From Escherichia phage C6, in sequence record MW679410.1: 64,000 bases of DNA. One strand, written 5' to 3'. Each line of letters starts with the position of its first letter. The stretch's first letter is position 1. Below, piece by piece: positions 3,328 through 36,437 of the stretch. The position numbers were made by a program, and so were the translations under genes. The notes below the pieces were generated by a model. The model saw only the letters and a list, made by a program, of their open reading frames with translations, had not been told where the DNA came from and did not search any database.

Positions 3328-3565
3328 CCTTGATGCATGATTCAGCCATATGAATTAATGTTTCTGGAGTATCATCTACCATTACATTAAAGCTAAATTC
3401 CACAGCCCAATCAGTAGCAACATAAACTTTAATAAGCTCGTTGGTATCGCGAGTGCTCACGGCTTCAAACCAGAACTTAATTGTATTAGGTTGTCCGTCG
3501 TCATCAATAACGATACAGTCGTGTTCTAGTTCAAGTCCTGATTTTTTGAATTCATCTAAAGTCAT
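3302..3565 (-). CDS. Hypothetical protein (46.2-like)
   Basis: 87 aa; ATG start; translationally coupled to gene 47. Confidence 0.5.
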   Translation of the reverse strand: MTLDEFKKSGLELEHDCIVIDDDGQPNTIKFWFEAVSTRDTNELIKVYVATDWAVEFSFNVMVDDTPETLIHMAESCIKDAYNDENV

Positions 3566-4584
3566 CGTGTAACCTCATTATAAAGTTGTGCAGCCATAGT
3601 CTTAAGGGCTTTAACATCGTCTTCAGTGTGGCCATCAGGAAGGGCATCGATATAATCATACATCATATCCAAGAGGGACTTAACTTCATCTTCCTCTTCA
3701 GAATCATCGATATCAACACTGTTATCTACCTTAGACACGATACGTAAAGAATGGACCACCTTTTCAAGCTCTGATTCGAACTTAGTAAGACCGTCATCAA
3801 TTTTATCGACTATAACACGAACTGCGATATTTGTAAAATCTTTGTAATCGATAGTCGCGTTAGGATAATGAATCTTACGGTGCCAACAGGTTTCATTAAT
3901 GATGAAATCCATCTTATGAGTTTCTGTGTCGAAAATCCAGAATCCGCGAGGGTCGTTCTCGTCACCAGCAGTCAGGGTCCATGGCGTACCAATATACTTA
4001 ACGTTTGCTGCATCAGAAATAGTATGGAAGTGTCCAGACCATACCTGCTTATACTTCTTAAGGAAATCAGGTTCTAAACCATGAGATTTCATTCCTTTAT
4101 AGAAATAGAAACCATTTAATTCCCAGTGACCTATACAGAAATCTGCTGTGGTATTTTTGATATGCTCCATGATATCGGTAGTGTTTTCTTCACACATCCA
4201 TGGAATCAAATCAATTTCGGTGCCATCAAAATTAACCGTAGTAGGTTTCTCAATAACCTTGATATGGTCATATTTACCCAGAACTTCTGAAGCTGCGTTC
4301 GGAGTTAGGGTATTTTTGTAGTGCATATCATGGTTGCCAACGATAGTATACATGGTAATGCCGTTGGCTTTAAGCAAATCGGAGATTTCGCGAGCGAATT
4401 CCATGCACTTGTGGGTAATTGCTTTACGAACGTCAAAGATATCACCGTACTGAATCCAGACAGTAATGCCATTTGCTTTAGAATAATTAATAGCGTCTTG
4501 GATACCTTGACGTTGGATATTTTGTACCCATACATCATCGGCCTTAACTCCAAGGTGCCAGTCACCTGTGTTTAATATTTTCAT
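3562..4584 (-). CDS. 47: Recombination endonuclease subunit gp47 (Mre11/SbcD-like nuclease)
   Basis: Start trimmed to MKILNTGDWHLG, matching the recalled T4 gp47 N-terminus; phosphoesterase motifs GDWHLG, GNHD. Confidence 0.95.
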   Translation of the reverse strand: MKILNTGDWHLGVKADDVWVQNIQRQGIQDAINYSKANGITVWIQYGDIFDVRKAITHKCMEFAREISDLLKANGITMYTIVGNHDMHYKNTLTPNAASEVLGKYDHIKVIEKPTTVNFDGTEIDLIPWMCEENTTDIMEHIKNTTADFCIGHWELNGFYFYKGMKSHGLEPDFLKKYKQVWSGHFHTISDAANVKYIGTPWTLTAGDENDPRGFWIFDTETHKMDFIINETCWHRKIHYPNATIDYKDFTNIAVRVIVDKIDDGLTKFESELEKVVHSLRIVSKVDNSVDIDDSEEEDEVKSLLDMMYDYIDALPDGHTEDDVKALKTMAAQLYNEVTR

Positions 4585-4724
4585 AAGCCAAGCGCCGTTA
4601 TCGCAGTGCAAAATAAAATTATTGAAATGAACCCGTCAGGAGTGGAAAAGAATCCTATCCAACAAGCTCGTGTGAATGTATAGAATGCCATGAATAGCAC
4701 GACATATCCTAAAAATAATTCCAT
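4581..4724 (-). CDS. Small hydrophobic ORF (47 aa), stop overlapping the gene 47 start
   Basis: Read from sequence (MELFLGYVVLFMAFYTFT...); SD GAGGAGAA upstream; below track length cut-off. Confidence 0.3.
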   Translation of the reverse strand: MELFLGYVVLFMAFYTFTRACWIGFFSTPDGFISIILFCTAITALGL

Positions 4725-4763
4725 ATGTTCTCCTCAGTTTAGACTATTGTACTCCGATATACC

Positions 4764-4795
4764 TAAAGCAAAAAAGGAGCCTAAGCTCCTTTACC
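4764..4795 (-). terminator. Rho-independent terminator (minus strand)
   Basis: Minus strand GGAGCTTAGGCTCC hairpin followed by TTTTTT. Confidence 0.5.
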
Positions 4796-5227
4796 AACTA
4801 ATACACCGTACAGAGGTTCGTGATTAGACCTGAACTTGATAGGCTTATATGTAATAGTACCTTCATTTTCTGCTTTAATACGAGCGGCTTCAAATTTAAG
4901 CAACATCTCATTTTTGTCAGATTTAATCTTATCAAAATCCATCGAATTCGTCATTCATACAACCTCTTAAACTTTTTCATATTCGTCATTCATAAGCTTA
5001 AAAATCAGGGTGTTCGTCTTTCATTAGCCACCTGTCCATGTTATCATCGTTGCCACCATTTCTTAAGTTGGTGTGAATCCACCCAAACCTTGGCTACAGG
5101 CTCAATCTGAAAAATACCATCAGAATATTGACCCATCATTTTGTATTCGGTTTCGGACTGCTTAATACAGATATTACCGTATGAGCGAAGTCTAAAGGCG
5201 GCTCCAATAAGAAGCCGTTTAAAGGGT

Positions 5228-31829: not shown

Positions 31830-32789
31830 TTATTTTTCGAAAGGACGAATTAAATGATGATTATCTTGGAAACGCTTGATGTAGTCGTTTTCACCTAAAG
31901 TCTTGTACATATTAACCACAGCTTGGTAGTTTTCCCAGGCATACTCGCGGAACCAACCTGAAGTGATTGAGGTACACACTTTCTCAAGGGCCATATAGAA
32001 ACTTAATGATGGTGAAATATTGAAGTCATTAGGAACCTGTGAACGTTCTAGTGCCAGGACACAAGTTTCTTCATACACACCAGCCAATTTAATAGCTTCA
32101 GGCAAAGCCTCGAACTTCTCACGAGAAGTCATGACTTCAGAACCTTCCTTCATATAAAAGGTATATGCAGGGCGTCCGGCCAATGCCACAGCTTCATGGA
32201 TAGAGTCATGGTCTAGGGTATAAATGGTGTCATTAAAGAACGATGATTTGTTTACATCTAATTTAGGATGAGAATAGCTCAACGTTTCTTTTTGACGTTG
32301 CAGCATAATTTCCTGGAGTTCTTCATTCAGGGTGATACCTTTATTACGAAGGTATTTGATGTGGGACATAGTTTTCAGGAAGAACGGATTATTCTTCAGG
32401 AAACGATGAGAGGTTTTGATAGCCAGACAGATATCAGGCGTAGCCCAATAGAAACCTGTAAGACGGTCCTTTTTAATATGATTTTCAGCATATTTCAGGA
32501 GACGATAACTTGAGGTGAAATCTTCGTCTTGGAGCTCACCAGTGATTTCACGTACGTTAGTCAGAGCACGAACGATATATGCTTCAAAATAGGTTTCTTT
32601 ACCGTTGTACATGCATTTAAAAGCCTGGACATCAGGGTTATCCACAGGAACATGGGCGCCGAACATCCGAGCTTTAAAGTGATTCCATGAGCCTTGGTCG
32701 GCAATGAAATCCCAATCAGAATTTTCGATATACTTATTTTCAATCAGACCAGCGTGGTGCAGTGCACGAGAACCAATAACTAGCATCAT
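31830..32789 (-). CDS. Hypothetical protein
   Basis: Start trimmed to MMLVIGS with SD GAGGAAA; 319 aa. Confidence 0.55.
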   Translation of the reverse strand: MMLVIGSRALHHAGLIENKYIENSDWDFIADQGSWNHFKARMFGAHVPVDNPDVQAFKCMYNGKETYFEAYIVRALTNVREITGELQDEDFTSSYRLLKYAENHIKKDRLTGFYWATPDICLAIKTSHRFLKNNPFFLKTMSHIKYLRNKGITLNEELQEIMLQRQKETLSYSHPKLDVNKSSFFNDTIYTLDHDSIHEAVALAGRPAYTFYMKEGSEVMTSREKFEALPEAIKLAGVYEETCVLALERSQVPNDFNISPSLSFYMALEKVCTSITSGWFREYAWENYQAVVNMYKTLGENDYIKRFQDNHHLIRPFEK

Positions 32790-32808: not shown

Positions 32809-33048
32809 TTAAATTTCGGCAACGTAAGTGTTATGCAATTCCCACATATCATTGGAATTACTCTCAACGATAGGAATTATCTCATTAGAAATTTCTTCTG
32901 CATAAGGGTCATTGATACAGTGAGCATCTTCAAAACGAACACCGTAATCAGACTTCTTATAAGCAAAGCCATAAATCTTTTTAAACTTGGCACGAGTAAT
33001 GCGTACTGGTTCATTAGACTTATCGGACATCGGAGCGTAATACCACAT
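32809..33048 (-). CDS. Hypothetical protein
   Basis: 79 aa. Confidence 0.45.
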   Translation of the reverse strand: MWYYAPMSDKSNEPVRITRAKFKKIYGFAYKKSDYGVRFEDAHCINDPYAEEISNEIIPIVESNSNDMWELHNTYVAEI

Positions 33049-33091
33049 ATGTTCTCCTCATGTTTGTGTAGGGTAATAGTAACACGTATTT

Positions 33092-33421
33092 TTAGAGTTG
33101 TACATCACTTCTGCAATATTCTAAAAATAATTTATCGTTGTCTACCGTATCCCAACGACGCCAAGATGGATTCCAGACCAAAGCGTTGTCACCACAATCA
33201 TTGAGCTTAAAATGGTCGTAGTACATAGCTATACGTCTAGTTTCGTCACCAGAGAACCCCAGTATAGGCTCGCCATGGGTGTGATACATATGATGGTGCA
33301 TTGAGAGGTCGCATTTGTAAAACATCTCACGTTTACCACGAACGAACAAGAAAGCTTGCCCATTCATATAGAATTCTTTATCTGTTTTCAAAAGATATTT
33401 GAATACTGAATCTTTATGCAT
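33092..33421 (-). CDS. Hypothetical His-rich protein (start trimmed)
   Basis: Track ORF 33092..33442; internal Met MHKDS chosen. Confidence 0.4.
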   Translation of the reverse strand: MHKDSVFKYLLKTDKEFYMNGQAFLFVRGKREMFYKCDLSMHHHMYHTHGEPILGFSGDETRRIAMYYDHFKLNDCGDNALVWNPSWRRWDTVDNDKLFLEYCRSDVQL

Positions 33422-33451
33422 AAATCCTCCTACCACATCCATGTGGTTAAA

Positions 33452-33679
33452 TTATTTTCCTAACGAAACACGAGTAGGTTTTTTACCAAAATAGTCTTCA
33501 TAAGAACCATCTAAACGGCCTGCTTTAGACCGACAATACGAATCATACTTTTTGTAATAAGTCATCTCGGTATTATAACGTGGGTGTCTATCGGCCATAA
33601 TAATACTTAGTGGCCAACCTTTGGCATAATCGCGAAGACTGTTTATTTTACGAATGTATCGTTTTTTCAATTTTAGCAT
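33452..33679 (-). CDS. Hypothetical basic protein
   Basis: 75 aa. Confidence 0.4.
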   Translation of the reverse strand: MLKLKKRYIRKINSLRDYAKGWPLSIIMADRHPRYNTEMTYYKKYDSYCRSKAGRLDGSYEDYFGKKPTRVSLGK

Positions 33680-33897
33680 GAGCTTGGGTACCAGATTTCA
33701 CCATCGGCACGAGCAACGAAGGTACGACCAGCTTCTTCACCATAACAAGAGCTGTTCAGCCAATCTTCGAGACGAACTTCGCCGTCATAATCGTCGAGCT
33801 CAACACCAAAATCCTGAGCAGAAGCCATATCTTTTACTTTCTTATACAGTGCAGCCAGTTCAAGTGCCGCTTTTTCTAATTCATTAATAGTAGTCAT
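33673..33897 (-). CDS. C-terminal W-x-S-S-C-tail family, member A
   Basis: Start trimmed to MTTINELEK (SD AAGGTGA); ends GEIWYPSSC-stop. Confidence 0.5.
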   Translation of the reverse strand: MTTINELEKAALELAALYKKVKDMASAQDFGVELDDYDGEVRLEDWLNSSCYGEEAGRTFVARADGEIWYPSSC

Positions 33898-33907
33898 TTT
33901 TATCACC

Positions 33908-34117
33908 TTAGCAAGACATAGAGGATGTAAACCAGAAACCTTCACCTTCTGGAATACCGTAATCATCACGGACCCATTCGTAATCATCATATTCCGGACT
34001 AGAAGCTGGAATATATTCTTCGCCACCAGCGTGGAAGTGCTGACCTGTTTCGTCAGCCACGGACTGGCCTTTACGTACTAATTCGCGGATTTGTTTTTCA
34101 ATTTCATCAATAGTCAT
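33908..34117 (-). CDS. C-terminal W-x-S-S-C-tail family, member B
   Basis: Start trimmed to MTIDEIEK (SD AAGGAAA); ends GFWFTSSMSC-stop. Confidence 0.5.
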   Translation of the reverse strand: MTIDEIEKQIRELVRKGQSVADETGQHFHAGGEEYIPASSPEYDDYEWVRDDYGIPEGEGFWFTSSMSC

Positions 34118-34127
34118 TTTTATTTCC

Positions 34128-34325
34128 TTAGCATTCGTAAGAGGAGGACACCCAAGAGGTACCACTAATAGTAATACAACCGTTATAAAGCGTGATATGT
34201 CGTTCTAGGTCACGAACACCATCGATATAGATATCAGCTTCTTCGCGTTCTTCTTTACAAATCTGGATAACGTTTTCAATAGCTGCCGCGGCAGTACGGA
34301 TTGCACAATCTAGTTCACGAGACAT
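34128..34325 (-). CDS. C-terminal W-x-S-S-C-tail family, member C
   Basis: 65 aa; SD AAGGAA; ends TSWVSSSYEC-stop. Confidence 0.5.
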   Translation of the reverse strand: MSRELDCAIRTAAAAIENVIQICKEEREEADIYIDGVRDLERHITLYNGCITISGTSWVSSSYEC

Positions 34326-34334
34326 AATAATTCC

Positions 34335-34616
34335 TTAACATTCAGAAGAAGAGGATACCCATCCACCATTTTCTAGGCTGGTAGTGTAATCATGTTGGTT
34401 TACAATAGCGTACTGAGCTTCACCGTATTCTTCCCAGTGGGCAAGGTCGGCTTTCAGGGCGCCAGGAGAATAATAGTCACCGCCCATACCGCGAGCAGGG
34501 TATATATTAAAATGAGTCTCATATTTGTTAGCAATTTCCTCAGCACGACGAATAGCTTTATGGATATCATTTACTGCTTCAGCCAGTTCTTTATTTTTAC
34601 GGTAATCATTCATCAT
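34335..34616 (-). CDS. C-terminal W-x-S-S-C-tail family, member D
   Basis: 93 aa; SD AAGGAAA; ends GGWVSSSSEC-stop. Confidence 0.55.
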   Translation of the reverse strand: MMNDYRKNKELAEAVNDIHKAIRRAEEIANKYETHFNIYPARGMGGDYYSPGALKADLAHWEEYGEAQYAIVNQHDYTTSLENGGWVSSSSEC

Positions 34617-34625
34617 AGCGTTTCC

Positions 34626-34916
34626 TTAGCACATTGCTGAAGAGGAGACCCAAGCACCAACTGTAACGACGCCGTTTTCAACTTCACCGCCGTTGTTTTC
34701 AATTTCATCTTTAAACCACTGGGAGCATTCATAACCGACAGGATAATATGTACGGCCTGAACCATAATCACCGGTACCGAATTGGATACCATACTTATCG
34801 GCAATAGCTTCACATTCATGTTCGATGGTATTCACTTTACGCAACAGGTCATAGATGGCTTTTTCTGCAGATTTTTCGTCGTTGTGTTCTGGGATTTCAA
34901 TTTCAATTTTATTCAT
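34626..34916 (-). CDS. C-terminal W-x-S-S-C-tail family, member E
   Basis: 96 aa; SD AGGAA; ends GAWVSSSAMC-stop. Confidence 0.55.
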   Translation of the reverse strand: MNKIEIEIPEHNDEKSAEKAIYDLLRKVNTIEHECEAIADKYGIQFGTGDYGSGRTYYPVGYECSQWFKDEIENNGGEVENGVVTVGAWVSSSAMC

Positions 34917-35266
34917 GATTTACATTCCTTAATAAAGATTTCAAGGTCATTACGTTTAGTTTGATTTACATACTCATTATAATTAGCCATCTCTAAAGCA
35001 TATCTCTTACGGATGGGAGCATTCAAAGCGTTTGTATGGCAAATATCATACACAACAGGGATAAAATAAGCCACGACAGCAGGAGCGATTATCATATAGA
35101 AACCCATCTCAATAGGCATGACTCCTTCGATTGCCGCCATAACCGTGGTCATTACCAGACCAACCAGACCTCCTAGCATACCGGTGACAATTCCCATAAA
35201 TAAGGAAATAGCAATATCATATTCAGCCAATTGATAAACATGTGATGAAAGACTAGGCCGTTCCAT
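34913..35266 (-). CDS. Small membrane protein (start trimmed to MERPS)
   Basis: 117 aa; two hydrophobic helices; stop overlaps ATG of family member E. Confidence 0.45.
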   Translation of the reverse strand: MERPSLSSHVYQLAEYDIAISLFMGIVTGMLGGLVGLVMTTVMAAIEGVMPIEMGFYMIIAPAVVAYFIPVVYDICHTNALNAPIRKRYALEMANYNEYVNQTKRNDLEIFIKECKS

Positions 35267-35795
35267 TTTGAACCTCTTTAGCGTATTCGCGACATTCAGC
35301 AATAAAACGATTAAGCTTCCGTTGTTGTTTTCGAATCTCTGATGTATACTCATTAGCCAAAATAATAAGCTCATCTTTATCGTAATTTTTAATATCCGAA
35401 TAACTCGGGCGGCGGTCGACCATACCAAAGTGGTCACCATTTTCTAACATCAAATAGCATACTAAATGGTAATCATCGTCAGCATCAACAAGCTGTTTAC
35501 AATCACTTGGTTCATTTAAAGCGTATACTGAATAGCATAATCCAGAGAATTCCACTCGTTGAATACCCAGATTTAAGTCAATAATTTCTAAAGCTTCTGC
35601 AAAAGAAAGGTCCTCAGCTAAAGCAAAGATAAAAGGTAATTTGCTAGTGTATCCACGGCTATTTGTTCGACTTAAGAAATCATTGGAATAACCTAAGTCT
35701 TGGCGAATTCTATAAAGAACTGAATTAGTTTCATGTGAAAGACCACTATGCTTAAACCAATCAATATTTGATATCAGGTCATCATATAAACTCAT
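35253..35795 (-). CDS. Hypothetical protein
   Basis: 180 aa ATG ORF. Confidence 0.55.
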   Translation of the reverse strand: MSLYDDLISNIDWFKHSGLSHETNSVLYRIRQDLGYSNDFLSRTNSRGYTSKLPFIFALAEDLSFAEALEIIDLNLGIQRVEFSGLCYSVYALNEPSDCKQLVDADDDYHLVCYLMLENGDHFGMVDRRPSYSDIKNYDKDELIILANEYTSEIRKQQRKLNRFIAECREYAKEVQNGTA

Positions 35796-35843
35796 AATAT
35801 TCTCCTCTCCTCCAAATAGGGAGACCGAAGTCTCCCGGTAACA

Positions 35844-36437
35844 TTACTTAAGTGAATTAATGTAGTCGTCGATATCAGCAGAAGTCGTATCCATTCCAAC
35901 TTGTGGGCCTTTAAATGTTTCTACACGCAGCAGGGTATCTTCAATATCAATCTTAGTCAATGCAGCGATTTCAACAACATCATCGGCAGTAGCAATACCA
36001 AGGGCAGCCATATTACGAGTTTCACGGATGTACTCGAGCTTAACGGCTAGTTCCTGACGAGAGTCATCAAGTTCCTTGACCTTCAGTTTAATTTCATTAC
36101 GCATTTCGATATAATCATCGGCTTTCTTACGAAGCTGAGTAGCTGTACGACGATAAAGGAGACCGAGTTTAGCATGTACCTGGACATCAGCGCCTTCGGC
36201 AATCAGTTTACGAATTTCACGTTCTTTAGAAGCAGCGAGCTGGTCTTTTTCATTAGCCAACGCACGAATACGTTTTTCTTCATTCACAGACTTAACATGA
36301 GCAGTCTGGAGTTCAGTGATTTTATCAATCAGGGTAGAAGCAGCTTTAGTATACTGGTCTTCGATTGACAGGTTCTGAGTCATTGCGGTGCCCAGTTTAG
36401 AACGAATGAATTCAACGAGTTTCTTTAAAGTGTTCAT
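35844..36437 (-). CDS. Coiled-coil protein (PspA-like character, tentative)
   Basis: 197 aa; heptad-rich helical sequence; SD AAGGAAA. Confidence 0.5.

Follow-up and report, generated by a model that had tools for sequence, protein, structure and literature searches.

In the MenAT1 system of Mycobacterium tuberculosis, MenA1, a protein of 68 amino acids (aa) encoded upstream, controls MenT1 by blocking its active site (PMC10435456), and other antitoxins of the MenT family are reported to induce phosphotransfer to Ser/Thr of the toxin (PMC11375011). Phages encode MNT-like nucleotidyltransferases (NTases), which make competitor cyclic dinucleotides (CDNs) (Ho et al., bioRxiv 10.1101/2022.06.09.495361). 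Here we analyse a stretch of 64,000 nucleotides of Escherichia phage C6 (sequence record MW679410.1; "the window" denotes this entire stretch), in which an array of five small minus-strand genes (33673–34916), the products of which end in nearly the same Cys-terminated peptide, lies upstream of, and on the same strand as, a DUF7277-DUF7275 gene (31830–32789, minus strand) that is predicted to encode an NTase. The tail family and this NTase are a widespread, undescribed two-component phage module, in which 1–6 Cys-tailed proteins are followed by one enzyme. We hypothesize, at roughly even chances, that the extreme C-terminus (G-x-W-x-S-S-S-x-x-Cys-COOH) of these acidic, presumably early and cytoplasmic proteins is an element engaging the downstream NTase. 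A literature search returned no description of the tail family, its motif or its pairing with an NTase.

The pairing becomes apparent from gene neighbourhoods. All open reading frames (ORFs) from 24 diverse loci fetched via the tail family were clustered, and one non-tail cluster recurs throughout, a protein of 300–340 aa present at 23 of the 24 loci, which is the NTase partner; beyond lineage-specific T4-type genes, no third conserved gene was found at these loci. Of 45 tail-anchored loci, 43 have the partner downstream in the same orientation; in the other two, the contig ends just past the tail gene. Anchored on the partner, 72 of 80 loci display tail ORFs by hidden Markov model (HMM), and 3 more carry divergent E-type copies recognized by eye, giving 75/80 in total; all 161 tail ORFs at partner-anchored loci are on the strand of the partner, and 160 of them are upstream. 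Copy number ranges from 1 to 6 tail genes per locus, and in many unrelated contigs of 60–390 kb (e.g. L011, L016, L019, L135) a tail gene abuts or overlaps the NTase gene. In Acinetobacter phage Ac42 (L048 2650–4666), two tail-type genes (the first encoding 143 aa ending in WEPSSQSC, the second ending in WTSSSMNC) are found directly upstream of a longer partner of 411 aa. There the module resides in a different neighbourhood, between genes 41 and 61, which indicates that it moves as a unit. The near-constant position of the small genes just upstream of the NTase gene suggests that the tail is probably a handle recognized by that enzyme. This companion, which the initial annotation of the array had missed, is the main clue to function.

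The hosts of the module range from phages of enterics to phages of Acinetobacter and Aeromonas, plus contigs derived from metagenome-assembled genomes (MAGs). A scan of 100,044 species genomes (one genome per bacterial or archaeal species) returned 3 loci, all of them on MAG contigs of 73–87 kb, with a tail ORF immediately preceding the partner gene in each, and a scan of 72,556 plasmids returned three weak C-domain hits only. As both scans were nearly empty, the module is phage-specific, essentially phage-only. Neither a tail gene nor a partner gene was found in positions 1–76000 of phage T4, which include the syntenic e-tRNA region; absence from the 76 kb of T4 examined would help explain the lack of study.

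The window belongs to a JS98-like T4-type phage of the genus Dhakavirus, and its bases 33000–36000 display 96.8% identity to IME281 and 91% to JS98. The initial annotation had listed five consecutive minus-strand ORFs with a shared Cys tail, each with its own Shine-Dalgarno (SD) sequence, and both statements hold: coordinates and endings were confirmed, each ORF is directly followed by the stop codon TAA, and an AAGGA-type SD is present at all five genes. In a six-frame scan of the window, the terminal motif W-x-x-S-S-(x-x)-C-stop is found in the five array ORFs only, compared to a mean of 0.15 and a maximum of 2 hits in 200 shuffles of the sequence. Gene A (34916–34626, minus strand) encodes 96 aa of the canonical GDYGSGRTYYP type, ending in AWVSSSAMC (phrog_899, E 3e-23; family HMM, E 3e-35). 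Gene B (34616–34335, minus strand; 93 aa) is of the G-M-G-G-D-Y-Y-S-P type and ends in GWVSSSSEC (phrog_899, E 3e-20; family HMM, E 3e-25). Gene C (34325–34128, minus strand; 65 aa) is without the YG.GG loop, ends in SWVSSSYEC and matches phrog_4882 (E 2e-36; family HMM, E 3e-6). Gene D (34117–33908, minus strand; 69 aa) ends in FWFTSSMSC (phrog_899, E 9e-13; family HMM, E 1e-23), and gene E (33897–33673, minus strand; 74 aa), which ends in EIWYPSSC, carries the motif twice, as DWLNSSC-YGE and as IWYPSSC-stop (phrog_899, E 8e-10; family HMM, E 2e-4). The five proteins are all acidic, with net charges of −6 to −11 and isoelectric points (pI) of 4.2–5.1.

Among the copies, the codons of the tail vary synonymously (GTC/GTA/GTG; TCC/TCT/TCA/AGC; TGC/TGT). 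This and the retention of the tail both in orthologues and among hundreds of remote relatives corroborate the earlier claim that conservation of the tail is at the protein level. Codon changes relative to JS98 (synonymous/nonsynonymous) amount to 18/6 in A, 5/0 in C, 5/1 in D and 14/5 in E, and gene B is more variable (19/17). As these changes are mainly synonymous, the five genes are taken to be real, expressed and selected. The SD of each of the genes B–E overlaps the stop codon of the preceding tail gene (TG[CT]TAAGGAA; junctions 33897–34626). A membrane-like ORF upstream (34913–35440; phrog_2330) shares ATGA with the start of gene A, and this overlap (34913–34916) together with those of stop and SD suggests translational coupling along the array. 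The RefSeq record of JS98 lists no annotation for the D-type gene, which is found there at L001 6908–7117 (69 aa, ending in FWFSSSMSC) as the counterpart of window positions 33908–34117; though unannotated, it is conserved with mostly synonymous changes.

On sequence grounds, genes A–E are full-length paralogues of one folded domain family, rather than unrelated proteins with a common tag. The alignment begins with a helix ending A-x-x-I-A-D, followed by F-x-x-x-x-Y-G-[SM]-G-[RG]-T-Y-Y-P, an acidic loop of variable sequence, enriched in D, E, W, Y and S, and finally G-x-W-x-S-S-S-x-x-C. The A..IAD helix and the YG.GG.YYP loop are common to most members (family HMM, E-values 1e-4 to 1e-35); the loop is lost in C and E, which retain helix and tail. 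The array thus falls within the family as defined here, that is, acidic proteins of 65–110 aa with an N-terminal A..IAD helix and G-x-W-x-S-S-S-x-x-C at the extreme C-terminus, C and E lacking the loop. The N-terminal regions had been described as divergent and acidic; these regions are not unrelated, as the proteins are full-length homologues with a common A..IAD helix and, mostly, the YG.GG.YYP loop. Likewise, the family had been regarded as unrecognized, although its members are catalogued as phrog_899 (A, B, D and E; E 3e-23 to 8e-10) and phrog_4882 (C; E 2e-36), both of unknown function; it is correct that no function is assigned anywhere. Neither A–E in Pfam, NCBIfam and PADLOC nor ten distant family members in Pfam found a significant match, and comparison with the PDB by single sequence and by profiles displayed generic helix matches only (E ≥ 0.02).

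When 1.84 billion representative proteins were searched with a profile (E ≤ 0.001), 511 clusters were retrieved, nearly all of 70–110 aa, with the match reaching the last residue. Among 196 retrieved sequences shorter than 200 aa, with a mean net charge of −8.3, the tail is present in 194, and 186 end in Cys; of the ten others, most carry one residue beyond it. In the 186 Cys-ending sequences, the W, S and S of the tail are each retained in 183, and 103 have no second Cys. Longer family members are extended at the N-terminus; C-terminal extensions are essentially absent. The initial annotation had named loss of the tail in orthologues as an observation that would speak against its proposal, and the reverse was found, the terminal position being nearly invariant in relatives. 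As the tail is invariant and no function has been assigned, a terminal recognition or modification signal is still the most sensible reading. Purifying selection has kept each of the paralogue types A, B, D and E conserved across genera, B-type orthologues also being present in other T4-like genera, which suggests distinct roles on one shared handle.

Some family members deviate in structure. An E-type subfamily with doubled motif (internal W-x-x-S-S-C-Y-G-E plus terminal W-x-x-S-S-C) comprises the window copy (33673–33897), L015 6120–6359, L078 3709–3954, L119 3432–3677 and L080 3328–3561, and in other members the acidic loop contains degenerate W-[DE]-S-S repeats, e.g. P0082 with WESSSEGWESSSEGWVSSSSQC. 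The A-type copy of the RB69 reference (P0043, ORF139c) is truncated to 71 aa, ends in QWYEK and is without the tail, and its function may have been lost in this laboratory strain; other RB69-like phages encode a full A-type protein of 101 aa ending in AWVSSSALC (L028 5989–6294; L061 2876–3181). P0184, a repetitive protein of 949 aa, displays seven profile matches over positions 29–66 (the YG.GG.YYP region) and probably represents an unrelated repeat.

The partner gene (31830–32789) encodes 319 aa, with a DUF7277 N-domain (residues 2–101, 92.7 bits) and a DUF7275 C-domain (residues 120–305, 259.9 bits) at a Pfam cut-off of 27 bits, and it matches phrog_2141; its counterparts are gp122 of JS98 and ORF134c of RB69. 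It was found in 733 phage records by tblastn, and its more than 2,000 homologues are unnamed or "hypothetical" except for one that bears the erroneous label "prohead assembly scaffold protein". An alignment of 52 sequences, with identities down to 41%, has 57 invariant columns. These include G6-S7, D25-x-D27 and E69, the complete pol-beta NTase catalytic signature, and in the C-domain K125, H128, R165, E168, H174, D193-H-D195, H198, E240-E241, C272 and S277-G-x-F-R. The AlphaFold2 (AF2) model (predicted local distance difference test, pLDDT, 92; predicted template modelling score, pTM, 0.86) has a MenT/ANT-like fold, the nearest folds being the MenT NTase toxins MenT1, MenT3 and MenT4; hence the partner conforms to a pol-beta NTase fold with G-S and D-x-D motifs, and judged by its residues it looks active. 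T4 nrdC.11 (L133 5435–6445) is annotated as "nucleotidyltransferase", but neither tblastn nor profile searching revealed any similarity of it to the partner.

The five genes are part of a leftward, early-type gene block. The best sigma-70-like promoter match, by consensus only, is located upstream of e.6 (36508–36480, minus strand; TTTACA-17-TATAAT, 11/12), and consensus matching in 31.5–36.6 kb returned neither the late-promoter TATAAATA nor a minus-strand terminator-like site. This promoter is a possible start of an early transcription unit running through the array to the NTase. Based on the leftward orientation, the sigma-70-like match and the lack of a terminator-like site or late TATAAATA in that region, the array is probably expressed early.

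Taken together, we propose the following mechanism. In each small protein, a long helix at the N-terminus would pack against a small beta-sheet, with the Trp anchoring the last strand, so that the Ser-Ser-Ser-x-x-Cys end would be left available with free carboxylate and thiol. This end would dock into a conserved cleft or the C-domain of the NTase and might extend as far as the divalent-metal site or the clade-specific K-V-C-T-S-I-T-S-G-W-F-R helix; free thiol and carboxylate could ligate a metal in the active site or the C-domain. The variable acidic body would then set the role of each paralogue. From synteny, fold and conservation we infer that the small proteins may dock on the NTase as regulator, adaptor or acceptor substrate; the physical interaction itself, the docking site, the early timing and any chemistry at the tail are likewise put forward as predictions. 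As the paralogue types are conserved and the enzyme persists without tail genes, we prefer a role as interchangeable subunits that confer regulation or specificity (pseudo-substrate plug or adaptor), with a role as acceptor substrates undergoing Ser-O-nucleotidylation as a close second.

Several observations weigh against the tail being a handle for the NTase. The AF2 model of A (38-sequence alignment; pLDDT 91.6, pTM 0.78) comprises a helix (14–42), two short strands, a second helix (66–74) and three strands, of which the last (88–91) carries the Trp, followed by a short terminal helix (92–95). The tail is thereby placed inside the fold (strand 88–91 and helix 92–95, pLDDT ~79), and part of its conservation may be structural. 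Comparison of folds displayed no likeness of the small tail proteins to MenA1 or any antitoxin, and none of 52 partner homologues matches DUF1814/AbiEii or another named NTase family of Pfam (only DUF7275 and DUF7277 were found, at E up to 1). The array and the NTase gene of Dhakavirus are kept apart by three unrelated small ORFs; in the window they span 32809–33679 on the minus strand, encode 79, 116 and 75 aa (phrog_3723, phrog_9796 and phrog_7065) and are lineage-specific. Furthermore, in a metagenomic clade (L110, L111, L114, L124) the NTase is intact (54/57 invariants) with no tail-family ORF within 4 kb, and L074 has lost its tail genes, yet its NTase (3935–4915) keeps 57/57 invariants. 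The enzyme thus can function without tail genes.

As to the neighbourhoods of these tail-less loci, a conserved ORF of 179 aa is found directly upstream of the NTase in the metagenomic clade (partner at ~3650–4710), and L074, a Karamvirus-like genome of 165.5 kb, harbours a tail-gene remnant (3439–3573) upstream of the NTase, in which no more than the final codons (ending in YTSSC) are left. Distant NTase homologues without tail genes were found in Vibrio phage phi-pp2 (L049), Streptomyces phage Wakanda (L050) and Gordonia phage Culver (L051), with 25–33% identity and a shorter N-terminal part; in Culver, the NTase gene adjoins a large tRNA gene cluster, like the module in T4-type phages. These distant homologues keep the catalytic core and lose T140, H174-P175, C272, S277 and F280-R281, a set of residues that marks a candidate docking surface on the NTase.

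The tail could also serve as a substrate. According to this explanation, which we regard as a tentative second choice, the NTase modifies the tail by O-nucleotidylation or phosphorylation of Ser or by chemistry at the terminal Cys, and the paralogues are alternative substrates or carriers. One enzyme gene per 1–6 small-protein genes, invariant hydroxyl residues beside an invariant terminus and intact catalytic residues in the NTase are all consistent with such a role, and NTase-fold enzymes that modify Ser or Tyr of proteins are known. For enzymes of the MenT family, phosphate transfer to Ser/Thr of the enzyme itself is reported (PMC11375011). However, the NTase is conserved in the tail-less clade, in one further genome and in distant homologues that never had tail genes; being kept where tail genes are missing, it cannot have the tail proteins as its sole substrate. 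In its most specific form the proposal, which we hold possible but rather unlikely, is that Ser-Ser-Ser-x-x-Cys-COOH is a dedicated acceptor site, nucleotidylated or otherwise activated by a phage MenT-like NTase on small acidic carriers. If true, this would be a novel protein-tail modification system used early by large virulent phages, providing, e.g., modified decoys or effectors against host defences that target tRNA or are based on nucleotides.

A toxin-antitoxin-like pair appears less likely still. Here the NTase would be a MenT-like, tRNA-modifying toxin directed against the host, and the small proteins would inhibit it in the manner of antitoxins, with the tail as a plug of the active site; host defence toxins of the AbiE/MenT type might be further targets of their inhibition. 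The gene order agrees with this, as the small gene is upstream of the NTase gene and at times overlaps it, and so do the fold neighbours MenT1, MenT3 and MenT4 of the partner and the precedent of MenA1. The acidic body, moreover, could mimic a tRNA acceptor stem, but the partner is itself mildly acidic (pI ~6.2) and thus has no overall basic charge to suit a nucleic-acid mimic. Conservation of several paralogue types across genera is not predicted for redundant inhibitors of one enzyme and argues against such simple redundancy. In addition, plasmids and bacterial genomes, the home of toxin-antitoxin modules, are virtually free of the module, the enzyme persists without the small proteins, and the DUF1814 sequence signature was not found in the partner.

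Improbable, in our view, is a third explanation, by which the tail is the last structural element of a small domain unconnected with the neighbouring enzyme (binding, e.g., a host protein, or a metal via the terminal Cys) and synteny reflects shared history in a hyperplastic early region. AF2 does build the tail into the fold, early regions of T4-type phages are rich in small, unrelated genes that are inherited together (PMC1524935), and in the phage of the window three unrelated ORFs lie between the array and the NTase gene. Nevertheless, the synteny holds across very different phages (contigs of 60–390 kb) in which all other neighbours differ, and across the 24 clustered loci the tail family and the NTase alone recur throughout.

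Two further explanations hardly merit belief. In processing akin to that of ribosomally synthesized and post-translationally modified peptides (RiPPs), the terminal S-x-x-C would be converted to a lanthionine or aminovinyl-cysteine (AviCys) ring as at the C-terminus of epidermin, and several precursor-like genes do lie beside one enzyme gene, with a spacing of Ser(−3) to Cys(0)-COOH that we take to match the AviCys-forming end of epidermin; however, the scanned neighbours comprise no dehydratase, cyclase or LanD/HFCD flavoprotein family (matches are to DUF or PHROG families of unknown function only), the bodies are folded domains of 65–100 aa, and the pattern is the reverse of a lanthipeptide precursor with conserved leader and variable core, as here the "core" is the constant and the "leader" the variable part. 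Equally remote is the idea of the initial annotation that the tail is a C-terminal capsid-targeting or packaging tag, a mirror image of the N-terminal signal of T4 internal proteins, which was suggested by a tandem diversifying family near the ipIII/e region and is not supported: T4 internal proteins are basic and expressed late, whereas the tail proteins are strongly acidic (pI 4.2–5.1), their genes are oriented with the early genes of an early-type block with no match to late TATAAATA in 31.5–36.6 kb, and the family is also found in phages far from T4, always linked to the NTase in place of head genes.

Hundreds of sequenced large phages, of the T4 type and others, that infect Escherichia, Klebsiella, Enterobacter, Aeromonas, Acinetobacter and Pseudomonas carry the module, therapeutic candidates among them. 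Two large families of unknown function, phrog_899/phrog_4882 (at least 511 clusters) and DUF7277-DUF7275 (>2,000 proteins), are thereby joined in one unit, and a MenT-like NTase, hitherto known as a bacterial toxin, would take a place in the early programme of a phage. The invariant C-terminal peptide of eight residues with a free Cys offers a clean biochemical hook. Whichever model is true (adaptor, plug or acceptor), several conserved early genes would gain a function, and a new means of controlling or exploiting NTase-fold enzymes might emerge.

Among described entries and systems, phrog_899 and phrog_4882 include A–E by HMM and give neither a function nor a description of the motif nor a link to the NTase family phrog_2141. 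The NTases of Ho et al. are likewise phage-encoded pol-beta enzymes with an S-D-W-D catalytic motif, found in anti-defence neighbourhoods; no linked Cys-tailed proteins are described there. As a candidate CDN-synthesizing NTase of this kind the partner was rejected, since GS-x-AY[GAN]T-x4-SDxD and NP-x-h2[DE] (~60 residues downstream) do not fit: in the partner, G6-S7 and S24-D-W-D27 are separated by 16 residues, and the third acidic residue, E69, follows 42 residues on.

NTase-fold modifiers with small protein substrates include MntA-HepT (poly-AMPylation), CitX/MdcG (loading of the Ser of an acidic acyl carrier) and GlnD/GlnE. These resemble the present module in that the NTase gene adjoins a gene for a small protein with an invariant hydroxyl, a small acidic substrate or carrier comparable to acyl carrier proteins; they differ in that no homology was detected and that the candidate acceptor here resides in a C-terminal tail ending in Cys. 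In AbiE (AbiEi/AbiEii) and MenAT3/MenAT4 (type IV/VII), the antitoxins are COG5340/AbiEi proteins of ~200–290 aa that induce autophosphorylation of the toxin, and nothing similar is found in the present module. Small genes are upstream of the NTase gene as in MenAT and AbiE, but there are 1–6 of them, and three unrelated ORFs lie between in the phage of the window. As the small proteins are not antitoxins of the AbiEi/COG5340 or MenA1 type, the DUF1814 signature was not found and the home of the module is virulent phages, we do not class it as a member of MenAT. The closest working resemblance is nonetheless to MenAT1, which likewise combines a small upstream protein with a pol-beta NTase. Compared to MenAT1, the present module is borne by virulent phages and virtually absent from bacterial genomes and plasmids, and has 1–6 small-protein genes per enzyme gene; its small proteins, whose alpha+beta fold bears no relation to MenA1, share an invariant W-x-S-S-S-x-x-C at the terminus, and its enzyme, without a DUF1814 signature, possesses an extra, highly conserved C-domain (DUF7275).

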